DNA from: Bacteroidales bacterium
GTDB taxonomy: Bacteria > Bacteroidota > Bacteroidia > Bacteroidales > JAIPAP01
Direction: 5' to 3'
Length of the DNA: 64,000 bases
Assembly (NCBI GenBank): GCA_021740045.1
Contig: JAIPAP010000004.1
Span: 251-64,250 of the forward strand
Shown here: in pieces, positions 51,458 through 64,000 of the stretch
How the letters are laid out: the number at the start of each line of letters is the position of its first letter
Position numbering within the stretch: position 1 is the stretch's first letter
The notes under the pieces: model-generated
Database searches by the model: none
Told to the model about the DNA's origin: nothing
Seen by the model: only the letters and a program-made list of their open reading frames with translations
Position numbers and translations under genes: made by a program

Positions 51458-51484
51458 AAAGCCCCGTTGAGGGGCTTTTTTTTT
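51458..51484 (+). terminator. Rho-independent terminator
   Basis: AGCCCC-gttga-GGGGCT followed by a run of 9 T, about 50 nt after the stop at 51409. Confidence 0.75.
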
Positions 51485-51620
51485 GCATAAGCGGATGTGT
51501 AATCCGTTTACGATTGGTTTAGTGGCGCGGATTGTTAATCCACTCCAGCTACAGTGAATGCGATAGCTAACCCGAAAGTTGAGAACGAACATTTTGCTTG
51601 AGCGGATTTGAGATCCACTC
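51481..51620. repeat. Three degenerate tandem copies of the GCGGATTTGTAATCCGC-type hairpin unit
   Basis: The copies are TTTTGCATAAGCGGATGTGTAATCCGTTT (51481-51509), GCGCGGATTGTTAATCCACTC (~51525-51545) and TTTTGCTTGAGCGGATTTGAGATCCACTC (51592-51620). Confidence 0.65.
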
Positions 51621-52294
51621 ATTAAGGCACAAGGCATAAAATACCAATCCGGACCGGTTAAGGGTAGGCAGATATTCAACCGAATTGTTTGACTACAAAT
51701 CATTTCACGAAAAATCCTATAAAAGTTTCTTAAAAAGTGCTACCCTATTCTTCCTATTTTCTTATCCACCATATACACTCATACACTAAAATTTAAAGAA
51801 AACTTAACATACGGATCTTTTTGGTACTGTTAGGCTTTATCATCCTGAATAATTCCTTTATTTTCAGTGCAACCTATATTATTTAGACAAGGTTAGAACA
51901 TAATGCCTAAATACATTGTTATTATAAATAGCTGATTTTGAATTTTTAACTAAATGTTCAAAAGACATTGCTATTTGTCGTATAAATTGTATGTTTGCAA
52001 CCGATTAAAGAACATAATAAAATAAGGTACCGAACATGGAGTTTTTAGAATTAATATTAAATATCATGCGATCCGGAAAGCATAGAAGTTTTTGTTCTAG
52101 CTCATACTCAATGGATTACATCCTTACCGGTATCTTCAGATGCAGTTTTATCACTTGCATTAAACCCCAGGTTATCGTTATATAGGGGCCTTCTCGCACG
52201 ACTGTCGCACATTTATCGAAAGACTTCAAAGCTCAATAAAGATTTAGTCTGGATTGCAATTACAATTTTATAATGCACTAAATACAAGCTAAAT

Positions 52295-55200
52295 ATGACA
52301 TTTAGGGACGTACTTAAAAAAGCAATATTAGTACTTGATGGCGCTTTTGGAACTATGGTTCAACAGAAACGACTTGATGAGGTTGCCTATAGAGGCGATC
52401 TTTTTACGAATCATCCTTGCCCGCTCTATGGATGTAACGATGTTCTGAACCTGTCCCAACCCGGTTTGGTACGTTCCCTTTATAAAGATTACCTTACTGC
52501 CGGGGCGAATATCATAAAAACAAACACATTTAATTCTACACCATATGGCTTACAGGAATATCAACTGGGCGATTATACCGGAAGAATAAACTCTGCCGCG
52601 GTAAGACTTGCCCGGCAGGCTGTTGATGACATCTCGCAACAAAATCCAACTAAACCCATATTTATTGCCGGTGTAATCGGCCCTACCAATAAAACCGCCT
52701 CTATATCTCCAAAGGTTAGCCAACCCGGTTACAGGGATGTAAATTTTGATAATTTGTACAGAAACTATTATCAACAGGTTGAGGCTCTGGGAAATGCTGG
52801 TATTGATTTGTTCCTGGTTGAGACCATATTCGACACCATTAATGCTAAAGCCGCGCTAAACGCGATAAACAGATACTTAAAAGATACCGGGAAGGACATC
52901 CCGGTAATGATCTCGTTAACCATCACTGACGCTAGTGGCCGAACATTAACCGGTCAGACTTTGGAAGCTTTCACTTATTCAATCCTGCAATTCAGCCCGG
53001 TTTCTATCGGGTTGAATTGCTCTTTTGGAGCTGAAAAACTCCTGCCCTACCTTGAAAAGCTATCGGACATTGTACCTACCTACGTAAGCGCCCATCCCAA
53101 TGCCGGCCTTCCCAACGAAGTTGGCGAGTACGATCAGTCAGCCCGGGAAATGGCAGATATGATGGAGAAATATTTACAAAAGGGATTGGTCAATATTATT
53201 GGCGGATGTTGCGGTAGTACACCCAAACATATAGCAGCCATCGCCGAAAAGGCAAGCCAATATGCACCCCGCGAATTACCGGTTATTAAACCCAACACCA
53301 TACTTAGCGGACTGGAACCGCTGGTTATTAATCAAAAGGCAGGATTCATCAAAATTAGTGAGCGGACAAATGTAATGGGGTCACGGAAATTTCTGCGACT
53401 TATACGCGGGGAAAAATATGAGGAAGCACTTTCTATTGCCCGCCAGCAGGTTGACTCAGGAGCCCATATGATCAATATTAACCTCGATGAAGGAATGATC
53501 AATGCCTCGGATGTGATGCCGAAGATATTGAATCTATTGATGTCGGAACCCGAAATAGCCCGTGTTCCGGTAATGATCGATTCTTCAAAATTCGAAGTAC
53601 TTGAAGAAGGTTTGAAATGCCTTCCCGGAAAATCGATAGTCAACTCCCTTAGCCTGAAAGACGGTGAGCCGGAATTCATACGTAAAGCCGGCCGCATAAA
53701 AGAGCTGGGAGCAGCATTGGTGGTCATGGCTTTTGATGAAAAAGGACAAGCTGCTGATTATCAGCGAAAAATTGAAATATGTGAGCGAGCATATCAAATC
53801 CTGGTCCATAAAGTAGGGATCTCGCCTTATGATATCATTTTCGATCCCAATGTATTAACAGTAGCTACCGGTATTGAAGAACATAATAATTATGCTCGCG
53901 ACTTTCTTAAAGCAGTACAATGGATCAAAGCCCATCTTCCCGGCGCTAAGGTAAGCGGTGGCGTTAGTAATGTATCGTTTGCCCTTAGAGGAAATGACAT
54001 GGTGCGTGATGCGATGAACTCCATATTTGTGCACCTGGCTCAAAATGCCGGCATGGATATGGGCATTGTAAATCCGGGAAAAATTCTTTCTTATAATAAA
54101 ATCCCTAACGATCTGCGAGAAGCTATAGAAGATGTCCTGCTTAACAGCGATAGCGAGGCTACCGATCGCTTAACCGATTTGGCCCGTAAGTACAAAGGTG
54201 CCAAATCCGAACAACAATCCAATCACAACCAATGGCGCCGGAAGAAAACCGCTGACAAGCTTAGCTATGCCTTGGAACGCGGCATAAATGATTATCTCCA
54301 GAATGATTTGGATGAAATGATGGCCGAGGTGGACAATCCGCTCACAATAATTGAAGGACCATTGATGCAAGGCATGAACAAAGTGGGCGAACTTTTCGGA
54401 GAGGGCGAAATGTTTCTTCCCCAGGTGGTAAAGAGTGCCCGCACTATGAAGCAAGCCGTATCCATCCTGATGCCTCATATTTTAAATGGTGAAAATGCCA
54501 CTAAGGCTACCAATAATGGAAAAATATTGTTGGCCACTGTTCAAGGCGATGTTCATGACATTGGTAAAAATATACTGGCCCTTATCCTTCAGTGTAACAA
54601 TTACGAAGTGATCGATTTGGGGGTAATGGTTACAAATGAGAAGATCATGGAAGCCATAAAAACAGAAAATCCCGATATAGTAGGTGTTAGCGGATTGATT
54701 ACGCCCTCATTGGAACATATGGAGAGCCTGGCTGAAAATATGGAAAAGCAACAGCTTAACATACCCTTACTATTGGGCGGAGCAACCACTTCAACCATTC
54801 ATACTGCTGTAAAAGTGGCCCCCAAATATTCGGGTATAACTGTTCAAGTGCCCGATGCATCCCAAAGCATCAATATCGTGAACAGGCTGTTAGGTAATGG
54901 TCACGGGGAATTTAAGAAAAGCATCAGGAATGAACAGCAACAAATACTGGCCAATTATCAAACCCGTAAAAAAGGAAAACGTAAATTTCTCTCTATACGG
55001 GAAGCACGTGATAAGCGACTAAAAACCAACTGGGAAGAAAGCCCTGCCAAAAAACCCCATTTTATCGGGACCAAAATATTTACCGATTATCCCCTGGAGC
55101 AACTGGTGGACTACATTGACTGGACTCCATTTTTCCATGGCTGGGGCATGAAAGGGGTGTTCCCTTCCATTCTTGAAAAAGAAAAAGTAGGCGAATCGGC

Positions 55201-55975
55201 CACACGGATTTTTGAGGAAGGCAAAGCTATGCTCCGGGAGATGATTGCCAAGAAGATGCTGAACCCCAAAGGGATCATCGGATTATATCCGGCAAACAGC
55301 AAAGGCGACGATATCATTATTTATAAGGATGATACCCGGCAGGAAGTCCTTGATATCCTTCCTATGCTGCGTCAGCAGGAGCTGAGGGATAAAACGGGTA
55401 AATGCCTCTCATTGAGTGATTATATCGCCCCGGCCGAAACCGGTAAAAAAGACTACATCGGCACTTTTGCCGTAACCGCCGGTCATGAAACCGAAGAACA
55501 TGTAAAAGCATTTAAGGAAGCTGGCGACAGCTACAACAGTATCATGTTCAGGTTACTGGCCGACCGGCTTACCGAGGCATTTGCCGAGTTGCTGCACCTG
55601 AAAGTCCGTAAGGACTATTGGGGCTACGATCCGGATGAAAACCTGGACAAGCAGGAGCTTTTCAAGGAAAAATTCCAGGGCATACGCCCAGCTCCAGGCT
55701 ATCCTGCCTGCCCGGATCATACCCTGAAAAAACACCTCTTCGATTTGCTCGAGGTAGAACAAAACATTGGCATCTCCCTTACGGAGAGTTTTGCCATGAA
55801 CCCGGCCAGTTCGATAACCGGTCTTTTCATCGCTCACAATGAATCAAGGTATTTTGGTGTGGGTAAAGTTAGCAAAGACCAAGTGGAGGACTACGCCAAA
55901 CGCAAAAAGCTGAACATCCGGGAAGCTGAGAAATGGCTGGAACCGGTGCTCAGCTATAAATCAAAAGACATATAA
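52295..55975 (+). CDS. metH: Cobalamin-dependent methionine synthase, full length
   Basis: 1226 aa with a homocysteine-binding domain (GGCCGSTPKHI), a pterin-binding domain, a B12-binding domain (GDVHDIGKNI) and the C-terminal AdoMet-binding reactivation domain. Confidence 0.95.
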   Translation: MTFRDVLKKAILVLDGAFGTMVQQKRLDEVAYRGDLFTNHPCPLYGCNDVLNLSQPGLVRSLYKDYLTAGANIIKTNTFNSTPYGLQEYQLGDYTGRINSAAVRLARQAVDDISQQNPTKPIFIAGVIGPTNKTASISPKVSQPGYRDVNFDNLYRNYYQQVEALGNAGIDLFLVETIFDTINAKAALNAINRYLKDTGKDIPVMISLTITDASGRTLTGQTLEAFTYSILQFSPVSIGLNCSFGAEKLLPYLEKLSDIVPTYVSAHPNAGLPNEVGEYDQSAREMADMMEKYLQKGLVNIIGGCCGSTPKHIAAIAEKASQYAPRELPVIKPNTILSGLEPLVINQKAGFIKISERTNVMGSRKFLRLIRGEKYEEALSIARQQVDSGAHMININLDEGMINASDVMPKILNLLMSEPEIARVPVMIDSSKFEVLEEGLKCLPGKSIVNSLSLKDGEPEFIRKAGRIKELGAALVVMAFDEKGQAADYQRKIEICERAYQILVHKVGISPYDIIFDPNVLTVATGIEEHNNYARDFLKAVQWIKAHLPGAKVSGGVSNVSFALRGNDMVRDAMNSIFVHLAQNAGMDMGIVNPGKILSYNKIPNDLREAIEDVLLNSDSEATDRLTDLARKYKGAKSEQQSNHNQWRRKKTADKLSYALERGINDYLQNDLDEMMAEVDNPLTIIEGPLMQGMNKVGELFGEGEMFLPQVVKSARTMKQAVSILMPHILNGENATKATNNGKILLATVQGDVHDIGKNILALILQCNNYEVIDLGVMVTNEKIMEAIKTENPDIVGVSGLITPSLEHMESLAENMEKQQLNIPLLLGGATTSTIHTAVKVAPKYSGITVQVPDASQSINIVNRLLGNGHGEFKKSIRNEQQQILANYQTRKKGKRKFLSIREARDKRLKTNWEESPAKKPHFIGTKIFTDYPLEQLVDYIDWTPFFHGWGMKGVFPSILEKEKVGESATRIFEEGKAMLREMIAKKMLNPKGIIGLYPANSKGDDIIIYKDDTRQEVLDILPMLRQQELRDKTGKCLSLSDYIAPAETGKKDYIGTFAVTAGHETEEHVKAFKEAGDSYNSIMFRLLADRLTEAFAELLHLKVRKDYWGYDPDENLDKQELFKEKFQGIRPAPGYPACPDHTLKKHLFDLLEVEQNIGISLTESFAMNPASSITGLFIAHNESRYFGVGKVSKDQVEDYAKRKKLNIREAEKWLEPVLSYKSKDI

Positions 55976-56004
55976 TAGTTCTGGAACCCTGAAAAACGTT
56001 AACC

Positions 56005-56934
56005 ATGAGAATAACAGACATCTTTAAAAAACAACAACGAACCTTTTCATTCGAGTTCTTTCCGCCCCGGAATTTCGATTCGGCGGTAAGATTCGGTATT
56101 AATTCCGGCCAGCTAATGAAGTTAAACCCTTCATTTGTAACAGTTACCTATGGAGCCGGAGGAGGAACCCAGGAACGCACATTCGACCTGGTAAACTTAT
56201 TCCAAAATCAGCTCGATTTTACCTGTATGGCCCATTACACCTGCGTTAATGCGGTAAAAGAAAAAATCGCATACGATATGCGCATTTTACAGGATATGGG
56301 TATAGAAAATGTGATGTTGCTAAGAGGCGATCCTCCAAAAAATGAAACCCACATCGATCCCAATCCCGATGGTTTTGACCATGCCAGTGACCTCATCCGC
56401 TTTGTGCGGGAAAACTATAACTTCGATATAGGCGCCGGAGCCTATCCAGAGGGTCATGTGGAAGCGCCTAATATGGATGAGGACCTGATCAATCTCAGGA
56501 TTAAGGTTGATTCGGGAGCCGATTTTTTGGTAACCCAGATGTTCTTCGATAACAAATATTATTGGGATTTCATGGACCGGGCTGAAAAGGTGGGAATTAA
56601 ATGCCGCATCATTCCGGGTATCATCCCCATTAACAATTACCGGCAAATCAAAAACTTTGCAAAAATCTCCGGCGCCACCATTCCTCAGCAGATCATAAAA
56701 CGGATGGAACCCTACAAGAACAGTCCCAACGAAGTCTATAAGATAGGTTTGGAACTGGCCATTAATCAAGCCCGCGACCTGCTTGATAATGGAGCCCCGG
56801 GCATCCATATTTATACCCTTAATAAGTCAAGGGCAGCTATTGAGATGTATGAATGTCTTTCGAAAGATTACAAGGAGATCAAATCCAATTTCGAAAAAAG
56901 CTGTTCCCCGCATCTTCCTGCATCCGCTTATTAA
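56005..56934 (+). CDS. metF: 5,10-methylenetetrahydrofolate reductase
   Basis: 309 aa with FSFEFFPP, VTYGAGGGT, LRGDPP, ADFLVTQMFFD and a typical TIM-barrel layout. Confidence 0.9.
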   Translation: MRITDIFKKQQRTFSFEFFPPRNFDSAVRFGINSGQLMKLNPSFVTVTYGAGGGTQERTFDLVNLFQNQLDFTCMAHYTCVNAVKEKIAYDMRILQDMGIENVMLLRGDPPKNETHIDPNPDGFDHASDLIRFVRENYNFDIGAGAYPEGHVEAPNMDEDLINLRIKVDSGADFLVTQMFFDNKYYWDFMDRAEKVGIKCRIIPGIIPINNYRQIKNFAKISGATIPQQIIKRMEPYKNSPNEVYKIGLELAINQARDLLDNGAPGIHIYTLNKSRAAIEMYECLSKDYKEIKSNFEKSCSPHLPASAY

Positions 56935-57009
56935 GCCGGATGAGTCGCTAAATTTAGCATCATGATTTTTATAAACAAACATTACAAATAAACAGAAGGA
57001 GTAAACATT

Positions 57010-57654
57010 ATGAGTTTCGATTTAGGTAAAATTTCAGAAACCCTTGTAACAGGAAAAGTAGATGATTTGAAAACATTAACCGGGCAAGCGCTTGAAACTG
57101 ATATTAAACCCGGCGATATTCTCAACCAGGGCCTTTTGCCGGGTATGGATACGGTAAGCCAACGATGGAAAGCCGGCGACATGTTTATGCCCGAGGTATT
57201 ACGTTGCGCCAAAGCTATGGGCGGTGCAATGGAAGTATTACGCCCTCATCTTTCGGAAAGTGAGTTGGGTAATGCCGGAACTATAGTTATTGGTACGGTA
57301 GCCGGCGATTTGCACGATATCGGAAAAGACCTGGCTGCTATGATGTTCGAAGGTGCAGGCTATAATGTTATAAATATAGGCATCGATCAGCCAAATGAAG
57401 CTTTTGTAAAGGCTGTTAAAGAACACAAGCCCAACGTACTGGGAATGTCGGCCCTGCTTACCACCACCATGCCCCGCATGGGAGAAGTGATCAACAGTTT
57501 GAAAGAAGCCGGTATTCGCGATCAGGTAGCCGTAATATTGGGCGGTGCGCCGGTGACAGAGGAATTTGCCAAAGAAATAGGGGCCGACCTTTACGCACCC
57601 AATGCCGGCTCGGCAGTGGAGATTACTAAGGAATATCTTGAGAGTAAAGTATAA
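57010..57654 (+). CDS. Corrinoid (B12-binding) protein of methyltransferase systems (MtgC/MttC-like)
   Basis: 214 aa with an N-terminal helical cap domain and a Rossmann B12 domain carrying GDLHDIGK (DxHxxG), MSALLTTT (SxL) and ILGGAPV (GG). A GAAGGAG sequence lies 8 nt upstream of the ATG. Confidence 0.9.
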   Translation: MSFDLGKISETLVTGKVDDLKTLTGQALETDIKPGDILNQGLLPGMDTVSQRWKAGDMFMPEVLRCAKAMGGAMEVLRPHLSESELGNAGTIVIGTVAGDLHDIGKDLAAMMFEGAGYNVINIGIDQPNEAFVKAVKEHKPNVLGMSALLTTTMPRMGEVINSLKEAGIRDQVAVILGGAPVTEEFAKEIGADLYAPNAGSAVEITKEYLESKV

Positions 57655-57799
57655 AAAGGCTATGGTTGGCGCCCTATGCAACATTTGGACTGATTATAAG
57701 CATTCTGGCAAATTCGATAATAATTGCCAACTGCCAATCAGGTTAAGGAAATCAATTCAGTAAGTTCGATATTAGAGAAACTTAAACAAGCAAGAATAC

Positions 57800-59248
57800 A
57801 TGAAAATCAATCAATCTATAAATATGTCCACCCGTTTCAGGGTGCTTTCCGAGGACCAGATCGAAGAGATCTTCTTTGCTGCCCTGGAAGTGCTTGAACG
57901 CACCGGTGGAGTCATTTATCACGAAGAGGCGCTGGAGCTCTTTAAAAACAGCAATGCTGTGGTGCGTGATAAAAAAGTGCGCATTCCGGCATCGATGGTG
58001 GAGGAGGCACTTAATTTCTATCCCCGCAAGATCACCCTGAAAGGAAGGAATGGCAAACGTTCCCTGCAATTACAAAAAGATACGGTTGGTTTCGGTACCG
58101 GCTCCGATCTTCCATTTACCTATGACCGTAAAACCGGTGAAAGGAGAAGAACCCTGTATAATGATGTACGCAATGCCGGTAAACTGGTAGACGCCCTGCC
58201 AAACTATGACTTTTTTATGTCGCATGGCATTGTAGGCGATGCACCCAATACACAGACCTATGACCGGCACCAGTTTTTAGCCATGCTTGAGCAATGCACC
58301 AAGCCTATGGTGGTAACCAGCGTTGATGGAGAAGGGTTGGAAGATCTTTGGCGTATGGGGTGCGTTCTACAGGGCGGCGAAGAGGAATTCAGGCTGAATC
58401 CTTTGTTTGTGGCTTACATTGAACCTATCTCACCCTTGAAGAATGACCGTACTGCAGTGGAAAAACTGCTTTTTGCCGCCGAAAAGAAAATTCCGGCCAT
58501 GTATACACCATGCCCAAGTTCCGGGGCCACAGCTCCGGCAACCATGGCGGGTATGCTGGTACAGTCATTAGCTGAAACGTTACTGGCAGTGGTTTTATGT
58601 CACTTGAAAAATCCTGGGATGCCGCTTATCATGGGTGGTGTGACCACTGTGCTGGATATGAAAAAATCAACCTATTCATACGGCGCCCCGGAGCTCTCAC
58701 TGGCCTCGGCAGCTAATACCGATATTTCAAAATGGCTTAACCTGATCATGTTCTCAACAGGTGGCTGTACCGACTCCAAAGTGCTGGACGAACAGGCTGC
58801 CGCCGAGCAAATGATGAATCTTTTCTATGCTTATTTGTCAGGCGCCAACCTTATCCATGATGTTGGCTATATAGATCATGGTACCAATGCCTCACTGGAA
58901 AGCTTAGTGATGAACGAGGAAATGATGGGCATGGTGCGAGCCTTTGGAAAAGGAATCAATACCGATGACGAGCATATGGCACTTGATCTCATCGAAAAGC
59001 AAGGCCCCGGTGGGGAATATGTAACCACCGATCACACATTCGAGCATTGGCAGGAATGGTATAGACCTACCCTGCAGGATCGCAGCGACTACGAAACCTG
59101 GAAGAACAACGGTTCAAAGACCATGATCGACAGGGTGAATGAACGCACCCAGCACCTGCTCGACACCTATGAAGCAGACCCCATAAAGGATGATCAGTGG
59201 AAGGAATTAAAGAAAATTGTAGACGATGCCGATAAACGGCACGCCTAA
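57800..59248 (+). CDS. MttB-superfamily methyltransferase, non-pyrrolysine type (paralog 1)
   Basis: 482-aa uninterrupted ORF. Typical family blocks are LSEDQIEEI...LEVLERTG, GGEEEFR, YIEPISPL and YSYGAPELSL. It lies next to a corrinoid protein. Confidence 0.85.
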   Translation: MKINQSINMSTRFRVLSEDQIEEIFFAALEVLERTGGVIYHEEALELFKNSNAVVRDKKVRIPASMVEEALNFYPRKITLKGRNGKRSLQLQKDTVGFGTGSDLPFTYDRKTGERRRTLYNDVRNAGKLVDALPNYDFFMSHGIVGDAPNTQTYDRHQFLAMLEQCTKPMVVTSVDGEGLEDLWRMGCVLQGGEEEFRLNPLFVAYIEPISPLKNDRTAVEKLLFAAEKKIPAMYTPCPSSGATAPATMAGMLVQSLAETLLAVVLCHLKNPGMPLIMGGVTTVLDMKKSTYSYGAPELSLASAANTDISKWLNLIMFSTGGCTDSKVLDEQAAAEQMMNLFYAYLSGANLIHDVGYIDHGTNASLESLVMNEEMMGMVRAFGKGINTDDEHMALDLIEKQGPGGEYVTTDHTFEHWQEWYRPTLQDRSDYETWKNNGSKTMIDRVNERTQHLLDTYEADPIKDDQWKELKKIVDDADKRHA

Positions 59249-59268
59249 TTTGTATTCAACAAATTATA

Positions 59269-60759
59269 TTGAACATGACGAACAGAACAAACTATACAAT
59301 AAATGAAAGCCCACATTTTGAGATCTTGTCCGAAGACCAAAAGGAAAAGATCTTTAACGGGATGATGCGCACCCTTCAATATACCGGGGCAAATGTGCAC
59401 CATGAAAAGGCCCGGGAGCTATTTAAAAAGCACGGCTGTAAAGTCGACGGCGTTCGCGTGTATTTTCCGCCGGAATTAATTCTCAAAGCCTTGTCGACTG
59501 TGCCCCCGGTTACGGAAATATTTCCCTGGGACGGTGATGAGAGCAAAAAGATCGTGGTGGAAAAAAACCGGAGTTATTTTGGCCCCGGCCCTACCCCACC
59601 CAATTTTATCGATACCGATACCCTGGAGCGCCGGCCATATTTACGAAAAGACGCATCGCTGGTAGCACGTGTATGTGATGCTTTGCCCAACATGGGCTAT
59701 GTGCAATCACTCGGTTCCATAAATGATGTAACCAACGGCCTGGCCGATGTTTATGAATTTGCCGACATGGTTAGGAATACCACCACACCCATTATGAGTT
59801 GGTCGTTTACCAAAGACGGTTGCCGCGACATTCACCGTATGGGTATTGCTATGGCCGGCGGTGAGGAAGAATTTCGCCAGCGTCCGAATTACATCTTCTA
59901 CGGTGAACCTATTTCACCGCTGGTGAGTGACTATCATGCCATCGACAAATGCATGTACTGTGCCGAGCATCGCATTCCACAGGTATACAGCCCTTGCGCT
60001 ATTGGCGGAGGGACCGTTCCGGCAACCCATGCAGGACAGCTTGTTGTTGCCCTTTCCGAATCAATGGTGGGAGTTATTGCCACCCAACTGATCAACCCCG
60101 GAACCTGCGTGATTATTGGCGGTGTCCAATCCATTCTCGACATGCGTTTTTCCATTTATTCATACGGAGCGCCCGAACTTTCACTGTTAAGTGCCGCACA
60201 CACTGAGGTGGTTCATTACTGTGGACTTCCCATGTACTCCACGTCAGGGTGTACCGACACCAAGAAGATGGATGCCCAGTCGGCTATGGAAGCCAGCCTC
60301 TCCATTAATGCCGCCATGATGAGCGGCGCCAACTTCGTTCATGATAACGGATACACCGAATCGGGCATTACAGGTGATATTTTCCAAACCGTGATGGACG
60401 ATGAGCTTATCAGCATGGCCCGGGTTATTGAAAAAGGTATTAAGATCGATCCTGAAACCCTGGCTGTTGATGTTATTGATAACGTAGGATCGGGTGGTCA
60501 TTACCTGTATGAAGACCACACCATGAACTGGTTTATGGAACATTGGCGCCCAACCCTTATGGACCGCAACAGCTACGAGAACTGGGTTGAACAGGGCAGC
60601 AAAACCATGAAGGACCGCATTATTGAAAAAACACGCGATTTGATCCAAAACTACGAAGGTCCGCAGAATAAAGTTCCGGCAAAAGCCAGCGAGGAGATTG
60701 AAAAGATCCTTCAGGAAGCCGAAGAGCGTATTAAAAAAGAAGGCGTAGCTCATGAATAA
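59269..60759 (+). CDS. MttB-superfamily methyltransferase, non-pyrrolysine type (paralog 2)
   Basis: 496-aa uninterrupted ORF with the same conserved blocks (LSEDQKEKI, GGEEEFR, YGEPISPL, YSYGAPELSL). It is strongly diverged from paralog 1 elsewhere. Confidence 0.85.
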   Translation: MNMTNRTNYTINESPHFEILSEDQKEKIFNGMMRTLQYTGANVHHEKARELFKKHGCKVDGVRVYFPPELILKALSTVPPVTEIFPWDGDESKKIVVEKNRSYFGPGPTPPNFIDTDTLERRPYLRKDASLVARVCDALPNMGYVQSLGSINDVTNGLADVYEFADMVRNTTTPIMSWSFTKDGCRDIHRMGIAMAGGEEEFRQRPNYIFYGEPISPLVSDYHAIDKCMYCAEHRIPQVYSPCAIGGGTVPATHAGQLVVALSESMVGVIATQLINPGTCVIIGGVQSILDMRFSIYSYGAPELSLLSAAHTEVVHYCGLPMYSTSGCTDTKKMDAQSAMEASLSINAAMMSGANFVHDNGYTESGITGDIFQTVMDDELISMARVIEKGIKIDPETLAVDVIDNVGSGGHYLYEDHTMNWFMEHWRPTLMDRNSYENWVEQGSKTMKDRIIEKTRDLIQNYEGPQNKVPAKASEEIEKILQEAEERIKKEGVAHE

Positions 60760-62746
60760 ATATCTGATCGGCATCGATACAGGAGGAACCTTTACCGACG
60801 GTGTGCTGATGCAATACAGGACCCGCAAGGTGATTCGGTCGGCCAAAACATTAACCACCAAGGATGATTTGAAAAAAGGTGTGTTAAATGTACTGGACGA
60901 CCTTCACCTTGAGGAAGATCTTGATATCAGACTGGTTGGTATTTCCAGTACCCTTGCCACCAATTCCATTGCTGAAGGAAAAGCCAGCCGGGTAGGGCTC
61001 ATCTTGCTGGGTTACGACAAGGAATTGGTGGAGGATTATGGGTTGGATAAAAATCTCGCTGCCGGGAAGATCGCCTATTTTTCAGGAGGACATAATGCCC
61101 AAGGCGCCGAATTGGAAAAACCCGATATTGAAGGTATCAAAAAATGGGTGAAGGCTAATGAGCATCATTTTGATGCTCTGGCCATCTCCTCTTACTTCAG
61201 CCCGTTGAATCCGCAGCATGAGGTCAAAGCTTTTAAAGCACTACAAGACATTTCCGATTTGCCGGTGGTTATGGGGCATCAGCTTTCGTCCAGGATCGAT
61301 TCGGTGAAACGGGCGGCTACAGCTGCTATCAATGCATCATTAGTAGCCGTAATGCAAAATTTTATTAGCGCCGTGCGTAACTCACTTCATGCCAAGGGCA
61401 TCAAAGCTCCACTCATGATCGTAAGAGGCGACGGCACCATGATGCCGTTTTCAGAAGCGATCAGAAAGCCGGTGGAGACGGTTTTATCGGGTCCTGCTGC
61501 CAGCGCCATAGGAGGCCGGTTCTTGTCGGGTAAAGAACGATCCCTGGTGATTGACGTGGGAAGTACCACCACCGACATGGCCCTGGTGGCCAATTCACGG
61601 GTAGTGGTTTCCGAAAAAGGAGCCCGCGTTGGTAAAACACAAACTGCCGTAAATGCAGCCAACGTAAGAACCATTTCAATGGGTTGCGACAGCCGGATCG
61701 GATTTGATAAATACAACCATATTACGCTCGGCCCCGACAGGGTAACGCCCCTATCGCAGATGGCCTCTCGGTTTAAAAAAGTGAAAGCCGAACTCAAAAA
61801 CCTTAAGAATATTCAGCGGGCAGCCAACATTTCGGATGTCACCTACTGGTATTTGTACCGGCCACTCGATGATCATGTTGCTTCATCATTGAATGAAAAA
61901 CAACATAAGGTGCTGGAATTGATTGATGAAAAGCCCATGAGCGTGGCCCAAATTGTCGCCGAAATGGGTGTTTATCATCCGGCCCAGCTTAATATGGATG
62001 AGCTCATCAAGCAGGAGTACATCGAATGCTCAGCACTAACACCATCCGATTTGCTGCATGTGGAAAACGAGATTGAACTATGGGATCAGAAAGCCGCCAT
62101 CAATGCCCTGAAGCATCAATGTAAAATCGGGGGTTTCAGCATCAGAAAATTTATCGATACGGTTATTGACAAGATCTTGAATACCATGGTGGAGGAAATT
62201 ATCATCTACCTGGCATGCCAGGACGGAACCACAGAGCAAATGCCCGAAAAGATCGACGGGGAATGGGGTAAATGGATGTTGCGACAAACCCTGAAACAAA
62301 GCAACGAATTTATTTCCATCAACCTTAATAGCATGGCCCCAATTATTGGAACGGGTGCGCCCGCCGAATTTTTCCTGAAAAGGGCTGTAAAGATCCTCGA
62401 CGCTCAGTTCATTTTACCTGAACACCACGAAGTGGCCAATGCTGTGGGAGCGGTTTCCGGATCAGTGATGGAAATAATGGAATCCATTGTATTCGAGCAG
62501 GAAAGCGAAGAAAAGCACTGCTTTGTGGTAAAGTTGAATGGTCATTCGAAGAATTTTGAGGAGTTCGAAAGTGCTTGTGACTATGCCTCCAGTGAGGTTG
62601 GTAAGTTGGCCCGGCAAGCGGTTTCGGAGGCAGGAGCCGTCGATCCCTTTGTGGAACTTACCGATAAAAGGGAAGGCTCCATTCACCGGTTTATTGCCCG
62701 GGCGGTCGGCAATCCCAGTTTATCGGAAAAACTGAAGCAGGAATAG
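60752..62746 (+). CDS. Hydantoinase/oxoprolinase-family (ASKHA-fold) protein with a unique C-terminal half
   Basis: 664 aa with the N-terminal IGIDTGGTFTDGVL, STLATNSIAEGK, VLSGPAASAIGG and VIDVGSTTTDMALV blocks of the HyuA-like family. An 8-nt overlap links it to the preceding mttB paralog. Confidence 0.75.
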   Translation: MNKYLIGIDTGGTFTDGVLMQYRTRKVIRSAKTLTTKDDLKKGVLNVLDDLHLEEDLDIRLVGISSTLATNSIAEGKASRVGLILLGYDKELVEDYGLDKNLAAGKIAYFSGGHNAQGAELEKPDIEGIKKWVKANEHHFDALAISSYFSPLNPQHEVKAFKALQDISDLPVVMGHQLSSRIDSVKRAATAAINASLVAVMQNFISAVRNSLHAKGIKAPLMIVRGDGTMMPFSEAIRKPVETVLSGPAASAIGGRFLSGKERSLVIDVGSTTTDMALVANSRVVVSEKGARVGKTQTAVNAANVRTISMGCDSRIGFDKYNHITLGPDRVTPLSQMASRFKKVKAELKNLKNIQRAANISDVTYWYLYRPLDDHVASSLNEKQHKVLELIDEKPMSVAQIVAEMGVYHPAQLNMDELIKQEYIECSALTPSDLLHVENEIELWDQKAAINALKHQCKIGGFSIRKFIDTVIDKILNTMVEEIIIYLACQDGTTEQMPEKIDGEWGKWMLRQTLKQSNEFISINLNSMAPIIGTGAPAEFFLKRAVKILDAQFILPEHHEVANAVGAVSGSVMEIMESIVFEQESEEKHCFVVKLNGHSKNFEEFESACDYASSEVGKLARQAVSEAGAVDPFVELTDKREGSIHRFIARAVGNPSLSEKLKQE

Positions 62747-62749
62747 CGG

Positions 62750-63427
62750 ATGAAAAAGGAAACAGCACATAAAAAACTCGTTATTGCTTGCGGAAGCATA
62801 GGGCCTGAACTGGAATCTCTGCCAAAACCACCAGGTACTGATCTCTATTTTATGGATCAAAACCTTCATCGTATTCCGGAAAGGTTAAAAGAGGAAGTGC
62901 AAAAAAGCCTGGACCGGTTCGACCAATATGACCAAGTGGTATTGGGCTATGGGCTATGTTCCAACGGAGTTGCCGGGGTAATTCCGCCAACCCAGCAACT
63001 GTTTATACCACGCGTGCACGATTGCATTTCGCTATTCCTTGGCAGCCGGAATAAATACAAGGATGTGTTTTATAACTACCCGGGAAGCTATTTTTTGACC
63101 AAGAGCTGGATTGAAGAGCTAAAAGATCCACTGGGACTCATGGAAAATGAATATACCCAACGGGTAGGAAGAGAAACTGCCGAATGGGCCATCAACGAAG
63201 AAATTAAAAATTACAAATACATCATATTTGTTAATAACGGCGTGGGCGACACGGACAAATGCAGAAACAGGGCGATTGAAAACGCAACTTATTTCGATAA
63301 AGAGTTTGTGGAAATGGAAGGACAGCTGGCCTATTTCCACCGTATACTAAACGGCCCTTATGACAAAACCGATTTTGTCACCATTATGCCGGGAGAAGAA
63401 GTAAAACAAAAGGACTTTTTAAAATAG
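62750..63427 (+). CDS. DUF1638 domain protein
   Basis: 225 aa. The LVIACGSIGPELESL start and overall layout match my memory of DUF1638. It starts 3 nt after the upstream stop. Confidence 0.65.
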   Translation: MKKETAHKKLVIACGSIGPELESLPKPPGTDLYFMDQNLHRIPERLKEEVQKSLDRFDQYDQVVLGYGLCSNGVAGVIPPTQQLFIPRVHDCISLFLGSRNKYKDVFYNYPGSYFLTKSWIEELKDPLGLMENEYTQRVGRETAEWAINEEIKNYKYIIFVNNGVGDTDKCRNRAIENATYFDKEFVEMEGQLAYFHRILNGPYDKTDFVTIMPGEEVKQKDFLK

Positions 63428-63438
63428 GAGACCATTGT

Positions 63439-64000
63439 ATGATTATAGTAGGTGAACTGATCAATGCAAGCCGGAAAAAGATCAGAAACGAAATCAAGGA
63501 AAAAAATTACGATGAAATAGCCCGGGTGGCTAAGGAACAGCTAGCCAACGGAGCTGACTTCATCGATGTTAATGCCGGTATCTTTGTCGGGCAGGAAGAA
63601 GATTACCTGAAATGGCTGGTAAAAACGGTTCAGGAAAATACCGATGCACCTTGTTGCATCGACACCCCTGACCCAACCGCTCTGGAAGCCGCCATTAAGG
63701 TGCATAAAGGCTCCCCCATGTTGAACTCCATTTCGCTCGAAAGCGAGCGCTATGAAAAGATGATTCCCGTATTACGGGGCACCGATATGAAAGTGATTGC
63801 CTTGTGCATGAGCGACGAGGGTATGCCTTACACTACCAGCGACCGCATGAAAATAGCTGATAAGCTGGTTAACAACCTGGTTCAGAATAATGTAAAGATC
63901 GAGAACATTTTTGTCGATCCGCTGGTGCAGCCTATCGGTTCAGGCGATAACCTGGGCGTGGAATTCCTGAATGCCGTGGAACAAATCCATAAGGAATTCG
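63439..64000 (+). CDS. Pterin-binding methyltransferase (methyl-corrinoid:tetrahydrofolate methyltransferase, MtgA/AcsE/MtrH-like); 3' end off the window
   Basis: Absent from the ORF track because there is no stop. Hand translation gives MIIVGELINASRKKIRNEIKEKNYDEIARVAKEQLANGADFIDVNAG...APCCIDTPDP...MLNSISLE...IFVDPLVQPIG, a DHPS-like pterin-binding barrel pattern. Confidence 0.8.
   Translation, partial: MIIVGELINASRKKIRNEIKEKNYDEIARVAKEQLANGADFIDVNAGIFVGQEEDYLKWLVKTVQENTDAPCCIDTPDPTALEAAIKVHKGSPMLNSISLESERYEKMIPVLRGTDMKVIALCMSDEGMPYTTSDRMKIADKLVNNLVQNNVKIENIFVDPLVQPIGSGDNLGVEFLNAVEQIHKEF

Follow-up and report, generated by a model that had tools for sequence, protein, structure and literature searches.

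Within a 64,000-nt stretch of a Bacteroidales bacterium genome (contig JAIPAP010000004.1, forward-strand positions 251 to 64,250; hereafter the window), a gene for an ASKHA ATPase of the hydantoinase A superfamily, here called HyuAL, and a gene for a DUF1638 protein lie side by side in an operon for corrinoid-dependent methyl transfer. The pairing is clearly real and non-random, and the hydantoinase annotation is clearly wrong. Membership of HyuAL and DUF1638 in the corrinoid system is strongly supported, and we conclude that the two form one functional unit, made of two coupled proteins here and of a single polypeptide of ~910-960 aa in several other lineages. As to what the unit does, we lean tentatively, and a little short of even confidence, to an ATP-dependent maintenance module that is aimed at the operon's corrinoid protein (CoP) and cooperates with a separate electron- or methyl-donating activator.

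Open reading frame (ORF) calls and Pfam and NCBIfam searches of the window place both genes in a single co-directional gene string (52295-64000) that runs from MetH through a pterin-binding methyltransferase (Table 1). An earlier note, made from the letters alone, had described a 664-aa HyuA-like ORF overlapping the mttB2 stop by 8 nt and a DUF1638 gene starting 3 nt after it, and both junctions were confirmed. The sequence ATGAATAA is common to the MttB2 stop codon (TAA, 60757-60759) and the HyuAL start (ATG at 60752), and the HyuAL stop (TAG, 62744-62746) is followed 3 nt later by the DUF1638 start at 62750. Junctions of similar tightness were found in the loci of relatives. HyuAL has 3605 homologs at E ≤ 1e-5, the top 120 of them full length at 49-64% identity, and the HyuAL and DUF1638 ORFs are therefore real genes. 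An NCBI protein from a metagenome-assembled genome matches HyuAL at 100% identity.

The close clade comprised 18 loci with HyuAL at 49-64% identity over the full length (window, L001-L010, L087-L094); L002, L004 and L006, and likewise L087-L090, are near-duplicate assemblies, and some short contigs carry a partial cluster. The HyuAL gene lay inside a corrinoid cluster in all 18, of which 15 are additional to the window locus and its strain copies, and where the contig allows, the gene order was CoP-MttB-MttB-HyuAL-(DUF1638)-Pterin_bind. The Bacteroidales type reads MetF-CoP-MttB-MttB-HyuAL-DUF1638-Pterin_bind, then a sarcosine/dimethylglycine N-methyltransferase-like (SDMT-like) gene, AhcY, MetK and PfkB; its head varies, being MetH, the Met_synt_B12 activation domain alone, an S-methyl_trans+Met_synt_B12 protein, or none of these. 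The Opitutales/PWKJ01 type, which lacks DUF1638, is CoP-MttB-MttB-HyuAL-Pterin_bind-SDMT-like-RACo (Fer2+RACo domains) followed by a 250-aa protein, and the Desulfobacterales type is SDMT-like-CoP-MttB-MttB-HyuAL-ACT-RACo-DUF1638-Pterin_bind-SerA.

A wider scan with one genome per GTDB species gave 80 loci, all with full-length HyuAL: L007-L010, at 49-52% identity, belong to the close clade, and the other 76 are at ~30-41%. These distant relatives came from Methanomassiliicoccales, Chloroflexota, Firmicutes, Armatimonadota, Spirochaetota, Alpha- and Gammaproteobacteria and Acidobacteria. The ORFs of all 80 loci were searched with our own profiles for MttB, CoP, Pterin_bind, URO-D, RACo, DUF1638 and an activation-domain-like protein. 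At least one corrinoid-methyltransferase gene was present in 33/80 loci, and in 29/80 it lay within 3 kb of HyuAL. DUF1638 was within 3 kb of HyuAL or fused to it in 14/80. RACo was present in ten loci, seven of which had DUF1638 as well. The partners were not confined to MttB systems: URO-D/CoP systems without MttB lie near HyuAL in L013, L024, L061 and L082, and such types occur in Methanomassiliicoccales, Coriobacteriia and Treponema. Since MttB and URO-D/CoP types are both associated, HyuAL appears tied to the corrinoid protein rather than to any single substrate. Two Firmicutes loci (L025, L047) read MttB-HyuAL-Pterin_bind, and some distant loci with MttB lie in aerobic choline/betaine/dimethylglycine clusters (DMGDH pairs, OpuAC, BetA/BetB-like genes). 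Taken together, synteny, the enrichment in distant loci, the fusions described below and the genetics of DUF1638 place the HyuA-like/DUF1638 pair in a corrinoid system and not in hydantoin or oxoproline metabolism.

Other neighbours of HyuAL homologs were recorded in the same scan. In four loci (L058, L063, L067, L074), three from the Roseobacter group (two Sulfitobacter, one Lentibacter) and one from a Rhizobiaceae metagenome-assembled genome, the homolog lies directly 3' of, and on the same strand as, the gene for the cobalamin enzyme epoxyqueuosine reductase QueG. One relative adjoins a 588-aa B12-binding protein. HyuAL is widely conserved in Methanomassiliicoccales, and Methanomassiliicoccus has two tandem HyuAL paralogs near corrinoid-protein genes (L018 7891-12010; L071 7926-11992).

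The DUF1638 protein was assigned by the Pfam profile PF07796 (138.4 bits against a threshold of 27, profile positions 1-160 of 161). Its AlphaFold2 (AF2) model has a pLDDT of 93.8 and gave no significant Foldseek match in PDB (best E 0.027, TM 0.26); no PDB sequence matched it either. Among 164 diverse family members, a set of three cysteines, a histidine and an aspartate is invariant or nearly so (Table 1), and Y155 is likewise 99-100% conserved. In the AF2 secondary structure C14, H40, C70 and D91-C92 each come after one of the first four beta-strands, and C-terminal strand ends are the usual ligand site of alpha/beta folds. By this topology the Cys3-His-Asp residues would cluster into one site, most likely a metal or Fe-S site.

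A DUF1638 profile search of 1.84 billion representatives returned 2391 clusters, a rare family, and fusions were sought among the best 150. Among these 150 were at least seven full DUF1638-HyuAL fusions of 907-959 aa, plus three fragments; five fusions were confirmed with Pfam (P0300, P0306, P0334, P0351, P0372). DUF1638 also forms the N-terminal part of the HyuAL ORF in five GTDB loci (L026, L038, L043, L064, L078). The same 150 clusters held a Fer2+Raco_middle+RACo_C_ter+DUF1638 fusion (P0379) and a DUF1638+B12-binding_2+B12-binding fusion (P0388), and a CoP gene adjoins DUF1638 in L013, L019, L059 and L066. The association of DUF1638 with corrinoid-protein and RamA-like genes was thus found as adjacency or fusion to CoP, RACo and HyuAL; its fusion partners were a corrinoid protein and two different ASKHA ATPases, and never MttB. 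Of these two ATPases, RACo is already known to act on corrinoid proteins. Because of these fusions and the adjacency to CoP, the simplest reading is that DUF1638 would be directed at CoP and would pair with an ASKHA ATPase, which may be RACo or HyuAL.

HyuAL itself was matched by Pfam Hydant_A_N (1.6e-31, 109.8 bits against a cut-off of 25.2, aa 6-166) and Hydantoinase_A (2.3e-28, 99.7 bits against 22.9, aa 187-330), the latter over profile positions 1-146 of 291 only. PDB sequence matches end at about residue 330, and Pfam found nothing above threshold in the isolated C-terminal ~330 aa. The earlier note had called the C-terminal ~300 aa unrecognisable and had looked to the diol dehydratase reactivase for a parallel, and neither suggestion survived structural comparison. 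The AF2 model (pLDDT 85.7, pTM 0.82) matched, over its full length, the A subunits of N-methylhydantoinase (9h03), acetone carboxylase (5svc/5m45), acetophenone carboxylase (5l9w) and caprolactamase (6yra), with Foldseek E values of 2.5e-25 to 1.3e-19 and TM scores of 0.49-0.59. Neither DdrA, GlmL nor any other B12 reactivase was among the top 50 PDB matches, and RACo (3zyy/4c1n) resembled the model only at the generic ASKHA level (TM 0.18-0.20). The family keeps GGDS (311-314), TPxDxxH (430-436), GxGAPA (533-538) and NAxGA (563-567); GGxS, TPxD and NAxGA are canonical core motifs of PF01968. A novel C-terminal fold was rejected on the Foldseek match and the conserved HyuA motifs, and as modelled, the C-terminal half is a HyuA core that has diverged and taken in one extra module. 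This ~95-aa insertion, after 'GP' (327-328), is kept in 93-97% of the distant relatives at only 16-23% identity, and gave sub-threshold helix-turn-helix (HTH)/winged-helix Pfam matches at aa ~377-408 (E 0.02-0.09). In the fusion protein P0300 the Hydantoinase_A profile bridges it (aa 481-776 against profile positions 1-229).

That HyuAL has no Cys-cluster motif, as had been noticed from the letters, was borne out. The protein has six cysteines, none in a CxxC-type or cluster motif and none conserved across the wider family, and Pfam and NCBIfam searches found no Fer2/Fer4, Raco_middle or RACo_C_ter (DUF4445) domain in it. As predicted from its sequence, HyuAL carries no redox cofactor, and its motifs for nucleotide binding are intact; the conservation of these motifs in the 76 full-length relatives at ~30-41% identity is given in Table 1. 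No HyuB-type (Hydantoinase_B) gene turned up beside HyuAL in the window or in those related loci for which neighbouring genes had been clustered and sampled with Pfam; a distal HyuB is possible. One Acidobacteria homolog (L036 9551-12151, 866 aa) is extended at its N-terminus by a segment with a ferredoxin-type motif, CxxCxxCxxxCP, which hints at an electron-transfer connection. The stretch after this motif resembles the C-terminal part of DUF1638 by eye; a profile search found no DUF1638 there.

By tblastn of the whole 64 kb with two RACo queries and the 250-aa partner protein, no RACo/RamA homolog was found, in keeping with the earlier note's statement that no RamA gene is visible in the part of the operon inside the window, and RACo was not found in the ~20-kb loci of five other Bacteroidales-type clusters. 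The further claim, that the HyuA-like protein stands there instead of RamA, is not supported by comparison with relatives: HyuAL and a canonical Fer2+RACo activase share one operon in Opitutales, PWKJ01, Desulfobacterales, Coriobacteriia, Treponema and Gammaproteobacteria, and HyuAL is therefore no general RamA substitute. Nor is the window devoid of an activator-type element, since the S-adenosylmethionine (SAM)-dependent reactivation domain (Met_synt_B12) of the MetH at the operon head had been overlooked. Relatives retain this domain beside the cluster even without the rest of MetH. A standalone activation domain in L001 (339 aa) aligns to window 54965-55963 at 55% identity. L087, a strain at 96% nucleotide identity, has only a 347-aa standalone Met_synt_B12 gene before metF and is without the first ~880 MetH codons, window 51483-54986 being replaced by an unrelated 878 nt (window 51483-55975 compared with L087 1360-3226). 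L092 has a 709-aa S-methyl_trans+Met_synt_B12 protein, i.e., homocysteine-binding plus activation domains. This pattern suggests that the CoP and pterin-binding genes of the operon act as the missing MetH modules, as in a split methionine synthase, and the MetH activation domain is the conserved activator-like element of the Bacteroidales-type operon.

The literature connects DUF1638, and separately HyuA-like genes, to corrinoid methyl transfer. In P. inhibens, a mutant in the DUF1638 gene PGA1_c13340 is a methionine auxotroph, like the mutant in the RamA-like gene (Price et al. 2018, PMC5764234). DUF1638 is required there for a split B12 methionine synthase, co-occurs with RamA-like proteins in Alphaproteobacteria, and in Phaeobacter is encoded downstream of the corrinoid-protein gene; the authors had 'no specific proposal' for it (PMC5764234). 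R. pomeroyi up-regulates both DUF1638 (SPO2162) and RamA when given N-osmolytes, and it uses a single corrinoid protein for betaine demethylation and methionine synthesis (Mausz et al. 2025, PMC12478193). Strain DCMF responds to betaine with, among its most abundant induced proteins, an 'N-methylhydantoinase A/oxoprolinase' encoded in an MTI/CoP/MTII cluster (Holland et al. 2022, PMC9768040), and a hydantoinase gene is also drawn, with its function uncommented, in Sporomusa and Frackibacter clusters (PMC9768040). 'Predicted hydantoinases MA4395/MA4396' lie next to mtaCB2 in Methanosarcina acetivorans (PMC11619418). Our literature search found no paper linking a hydantoinase-like gene with DUF1638 or with activation.

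We infer that the corrinoid protein is the module's target, and that reactivation is the step powered by ATP. When the CoP cofactor drops out of its Co(I)/CH3-Co(III) cycle, DUF1638 would recognise the corrinoid protein and dock on it, and ATP binding and hydrolysis by HyuAL would remodel or unlock CoP, making re-reduction and re-methylation possible. The electron or methyl input would come from a separate activator, of the RACo/RamA type in many lineages and, in these Bacteroidales, the MetH-type SAM-dependent activation domain at the operon head, with DUF1638 possibly serving there as an electron relay. Several observations weigh against this proposal. Corrinoid genes are absent within 10 kb of HyuAL in 47/80 species-representative loci; in Rhizobium the context is P450-HyuAL-malate synthase G, and other loci have unrelated, heterogeneous neighbours. 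The need for a second ASKHA ATPase in systems that already have RACo is unexplained, and the role of HyuAL is argued from sequence and context. The P. inhibens fitness screen, with its RamA-like and DUF1638 genes, names no hydantoinase-like gene. Finally, in D. hafniense and A. woodii the characterised clusters for betaine methyl transfer are without a hydantoinase gene (PMC9768040), and HyuAL is therefore not universally required.

One alternative, in line with the unconventional activase that the earlier note had named as a candidate, is a self-sufficient reductive activase. HyuAL and DUF1638 would then replace RamA/RACo in Bacteroidales, DUF1638 supplying a redox-active metal centre and HyuAL ATP-driven gating, in parallel with the [2Fe-2S]+ASKHA design of RACo. 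The absence of RACo from the window and from the five other Bacteroidales-type loci is consistent with it, as are the nine species-level loci (9/80) with DUF1638 but no RACo, five of them fusions, the invariant Cys3-His-Asp set, and the ferredoxin-type motif of the L036 homolog. Nevertheless, in many lineages HyuAL shares its operon with a canonical RACo, and 7/80 loci have HyuAL, RACo and DUF1638 together; DUF1638 is also fused to a complete RACo with its own Fer2 domain (P0379); P. inhibens needs both the RamA-like protein and DUF1638 (PMC5764234); and the Bacteroidales cluster retains a MetH-type activation domain. We regard a self-sufficient activase as unlikely.

An ATP-driven loading or exchange chaperone would put the corrinoid into the apo-protein or replace one that is damaged or wrong, a function for which the ASKHA reactivases of adenosylcobalamin enzymes (DdrAB/GdrAB, EutA, GlmL/MutL) offer an analogy. 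The composition fits, with a large ASKHA subunit and a small alpha/beta subunit, and coexistence with RACo would be natural if the jobs differ. The glmL gene sits within glutamate mutase operons, and the HyuAL gene likewise lies between corrinoid protein and methyltransferases. Pfam MutL/GlmL matched aa 8-76 alone, at a marginal 27.8 bits (cut-off 27); in L091 and L094 genes for B12 uptake and cobamide biosynthesis are found just upstream; and some relatives adjoin other B12 proteins, namely QueG and the 588-aa B12-binding protein. On the other hand the fold is HyuA-type, with DdrA and GlmL outside the top 50 structural matches, the NCBIfam GlmL model scored 23.8 against a cut-off of 475, and a pure chaperone is not expected to have an invariant Cys3-His-Asp site. 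A chaperone of this kind therefore seems improbable.

HyuAL could instead be a substrate-level enzyme, carrying out HyuA-type ATP-dependent phosphoryl transfer on an amine substrate or product of the MttB pair, with MttB2 in the place of HyuB; a non-quaternary amine might be made demethylatable, for example, or N-methylation driven towards betaine. In the close clade HyuAL always follows the second MttB, to which it is coupled here by the 8-nt overlap, and the substrate is left open by the loss of MtgB betaine-binding residues from both MttB proteins. The cluster is accompanied by genes for SDMT-like protein, glycine/sarcosine N-methyltransferase (GSMT), AhcY, MetK and PfkB, and DMGDH, OpuAC and BetA/BetB-like genes neighbour distant relatives. 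But the URO-D/CoP systems of L013, L024, L061 and L082 are without any MttB, the fusion partner DUF1638 is fused to CoP and RACo and never to MttB, and methionine synthase needs DUF1638 although no amine substrate is involved there (PMC5764234). We give this reading little credence, and about as small a chance is left to some explanation outside those considered here. A regulator or sensor, with the insertion as a winged-helix DNA-binding domain and HyuAL as a ROK-type ASKHA repressor of the operon, is very unlikely: the HTH matches are not significant, the insertion shows little conservation, translational coupling ties the gene into a structural operon, the hydantoinase of strain DCMF is among the most abundant induced proteins (PMC9768040), and the catalytic ATP motifs are invariant, against which stand only those sub-threshold HTH/winged-helix matches and ROK repressors among the distant structural matches. 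An ordinary hydantoinase, oxoprolinase or lactamase A subunit placed here by chance, despite Hydant_A_N and Hydantoinase_A matches above threshold and best folds of N-methylhydantoinase, acetone/acetophenone carboxylase and caprolactamase type, is scarcely credible and was rejected, given no HyuB-type partner at any examined locus, NCBIfam equivalog scores far below their cut-offs (caprolactamase alpha 79.2 against 1000, acetophenone carboxylase alpha/gamma 69.7 against 1500 and 39 against 1250 bits), the retention of the family in corrinoid operons, and the DUF1638 fusions found elsewhere.

Table 1. Genes of the corrinoid operon and conserved features of HyuAL and DUF1638 (window coordinates)
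Feature	Coordinates	Strand	Basis or remark
MetH, full length, 1226 aa	52295..55975	+	C-terminal Met_synt_B12 reactivation domain ~54965-55963
MetF (methylene-tetrahydrofolate reductase)	56005..56934	+	Pfam MTHFR 3.1e-88
Corrinoid protein CoP, 214 aa	57010..57654	+	Pfam B12-binding_2 cap + B12-binding
MttB1, non-pyrrolysine MttB-superfamily methyltransferase, 482 aa	57800..59248	+	Pfam MTTB 1.8e-96
MttB2, second MttB paralog, non-pyrrolysine, 496 aa	59269..60759	+	Pfam MTTB 4e-83
HyuAL, HyuB-less, Fe-S-free hydantoinase-A superfamily ASKHA ATPase, 664 aa	60752..62746	+	Pfam, homologs, AF2 fold
HyuAL ASKHA phosphate-1 motif D9-T-G-G-T13	60776..60790	+	99-100% conserved in 76 relatives
HyuAL ASKHA phosphate-2 motif D268-V-G-S-T-T-T-D275	61553..61576	+	D268, G270, T272, T273, D275 100% conserved
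HyuAL inserted helical module, aa ~334-428, possibly winged-helix-like	61751..62035	+	AF2 secondary structure; between 'GP' and 'TPxD'
HyuAL T430-P-S-D433-L-L-H436 motif, Hydantoinase_A core resumes after insertion	62039..62059	+	T430 100%, D433 100%, H436 96%
HyuAL ASKHA adenosine-binding loop G533-T-G-A-P-A538	62348..62365	+	G535 100%, A536 97%
DUF1638 protein, 225 aa	62750..63427	+	Pfam 2.5e-40
DUF1638 invariant Cys14, end of beta-strand 1	62789..62791	+	100% of 152 aligned residues among 164 members
DUF1638 invariant His40	62867..62869	+	99%
DUF1638 invariant Cys70 (GYGLC motif)	62957..62959	+	99%
DUF1638 invariant Asp91-Cys92 (HDC motif)	63020..63025	+	100% both residues
Methyl-tetrahydrofolate:corrinoid methyltransferase (pterin-binding, MeTr/MtgA-like)	63439..64000, cut by window end	+	Pterin_bind

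Among the neighbouring genes, CoP scored 239.7 bits on an NCBIfam MtgC-like model, under its cut-off of 370, and the full 273-aa ortholog of the pterin-binding protein in L087 scored 339.5 bits on NF005719, over its cut-off of 259. The glycine-betaine-binding residues of MtgB are Y97, R312, H348 and F356 (PMC13080624). In phmmer alignments to 9yce/2qne, the corresponding positions are S, F, H and G in MttB1 and P, Y, H and G in MttB2, only H348 being kept. With three of the four residues replaced in both, glycine betaine was rejected as the MttB1/MttB2 substrate, which is probably other than betaine bound in the MtgB manner. Both MttB paralogs always occur together in the close clade. A search with Rfam at gathering threshold for a riboswitch or RNA leader of the operon gave as its sole match a borderline PYLIS_3, the pyrrolysine insertion element of mttB, inside MttB1 (58766-58865, plus strand; 40.2 against 38 bits). 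The match is also present at L087 6017-6116 and L001 8004-8103, MttB1 has no in-frame UAG, and the match is probably leftover coding-sequence similarity and no functional element.

Other features of the close-clade clusters concern the methyl cycle and betaine synthesis. The SDMT-like gene scored 400 bits on NF041675, under the 550 cut-off, and the GSMT of L003 scored 468 bits, over a cut-off of 350 (genes at L087 11516-12352 and at L003 4862-5650 and 12863-13702). Genes for AdoHcyase (AhcY), SAM synthetase (MetK) and one or more PfkB-type kinases lie around the cluster, including downstream in L001, L091 and L094; in L091 and L094 the B12 uptake and cobamide biosynthesis genes are immediately 5' of it, and SerA and an ACT protein are encoded in the Desulfobacterales clusters. 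In outline the Bacteroidales operon resembles a modular 'split MetH plus MttB' hub within an activated-methyl-cycle and betaine-synthesis cluster. That genes for making betaine and for MttB-type demethylation share one operon could mean a futile cycle, salvage of methyl groups or MttBs running in reverse. The ~250-aa protein that follows RACo has a C-terminal Cys-rich motif and sub-threshold similarity to the Met_synt_B12 activation domain (Pfam E 2e-4); with examples at L003 15815-16567 and L005 13365-14120 and in L040, L054, L057 and L079, it seems to recur as a further accessory of corrinoid systems. The contigs L087-L090, which come from four independent assemblies of a strain close to the window's and were reached through a DUF1638 99% identical to the window's own, all end no more than ~185 nt past the SDMT-like gene, which suggests a repeat or strain-variable junction just 3' of the operon.

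Turnover of methylamine, betaine and methanol, acetogenesis, methanogenesis and the synthesis of methionine are driven by corrinoid methyltransferases. Their cofactor oxidises easily, and to our knowledge the only means of its upkeep in vivo so far described are RACo/RamA and the MetH activation domain. The fused or coupled unit, the DUF1638 fusions to RACo and CoP, and the Cys3-His-Asp site on a fold absent from PDB define a concrete two-protein module. DUF1638 had been genetically implicated before, with no function proposed for it, and a HyuA-like gene had been drawn in one published operon figure and otherwise passed over. Thousands of 'hydantoinase/oxoprolinase' annotations would be corrected by it. 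If the maintenance reading is true, it would explain why split methionine synthases and marine betaine demethylation need DUF1638, and heterologous reconstitution of B12 methyltransferase pathways could improve.

A bolder proposal, which we think unlikely, is that HyuAL-DUF1638 forms a third class of ATP-dependent corrinoid-protein activator or chaperone, possibly the activity of the never-cloned 'methyltransferase activation protein' (MAP) type described in Methanosarcina in 1996, in which an ASKHA ATPase without its own Fe-S cluster would work with a new-fold Cys3-His-Asp protein as docking and redox site. If so, a general B12 methyl-transfer component, bypassed in vitro by Ti(III) citrate, would be spread over Bacteroidota, Desulfobacterota, Chloroflexota, Proteobacteria, Firmicutes and Methanomassiliicoccales. 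MAP, described by Daas et al. in 1996, is said to be a chromophore-free heterodimer of ~60 and 30 kDa, and HyuA-type enzymes move phosphate from ATP to oxygen. MAP of Methanosarcina barkeri is ATP-dependent, is autophosphorylated in an O-linkage, activates the corrinoid methanol methyltransferase MT1, and has a gene that was never identified (PMC5007285). The comparison of this autophosphorylation with HyuA-type phosphate transfer is a lead only. MA4395/MA4396 and the Methanomassiliicoccus HyuAL paralogs may be relevant to MAP; a homology search seeded with Methanomassiliicoccus HyuAL returned only Methanomassiliicoccales.

Among known systems, HyuAL resembles the RACo/RamA/AcsV activators in being an ASKHA ATPase of corrinoid methyltransferase operons, in its DUF1638 fusions and in its plausible CoP target. 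The activators, however, own Fer2 or 2x[4Fe-4S] together with RACo_middle and RACo_C_ter (PDB 3zyy, 4c1n), none of which HyuAL has. HyuAL also lacks conserved cysteines, shares only generic ASKHA similarity with RACo (TM ~0.2), and coexists with it instead of substituting for it. With hydantoinase and oxoprolinase A subunits HyuAL shares superfamily, architecture, N-terminal Pfam domains and the GGxS/TPxD/NAxGA motifs, but it is without HyuB in the examined loci, its Hydantoinase_A domain is split by the ~95-aa insertion, its C-terminal half is too divergent for Pfam, and its context is corrinoid methyl transfer and not lactam or ketone catabolism. DdrAB/GdrAB, EutA and GlmL/MutL are comparable as large ASKHA ATPases, with or without a small subunit, within B12-enzyme operons; these reactivases swap damaged adenosylcobalamin, whereas the cofactor of the window's CoP would cycle between Co(I) and CH3-Co(III), and they are not structural neighbours of HyuAL. 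The 'HydA' of 'Ca. Formimonas warabiya' DCMF, likened to HyuAL by annotation and layout only, has the same cluster architecture (MttB-family MTIs, CoP, hydantoinase, MTII), is betaine-induced, and shows synteny in Sporomusa ovata and 'Ca. Frackibacter' (PMC9768040). PGA1_c13340 and SPO2162 are of the same Pfam family as the window's DUF1638, and no link to a HyuA-like ATPase or mechanism was proposed for them (PMC5764234; PMC12478193). In the alphaproteobacterial genomes with DUF1638 of this type the HyuAL genes are unlinked to it, whereas in the window DUF1638 is coupled to HyuAL within an MttB operon.

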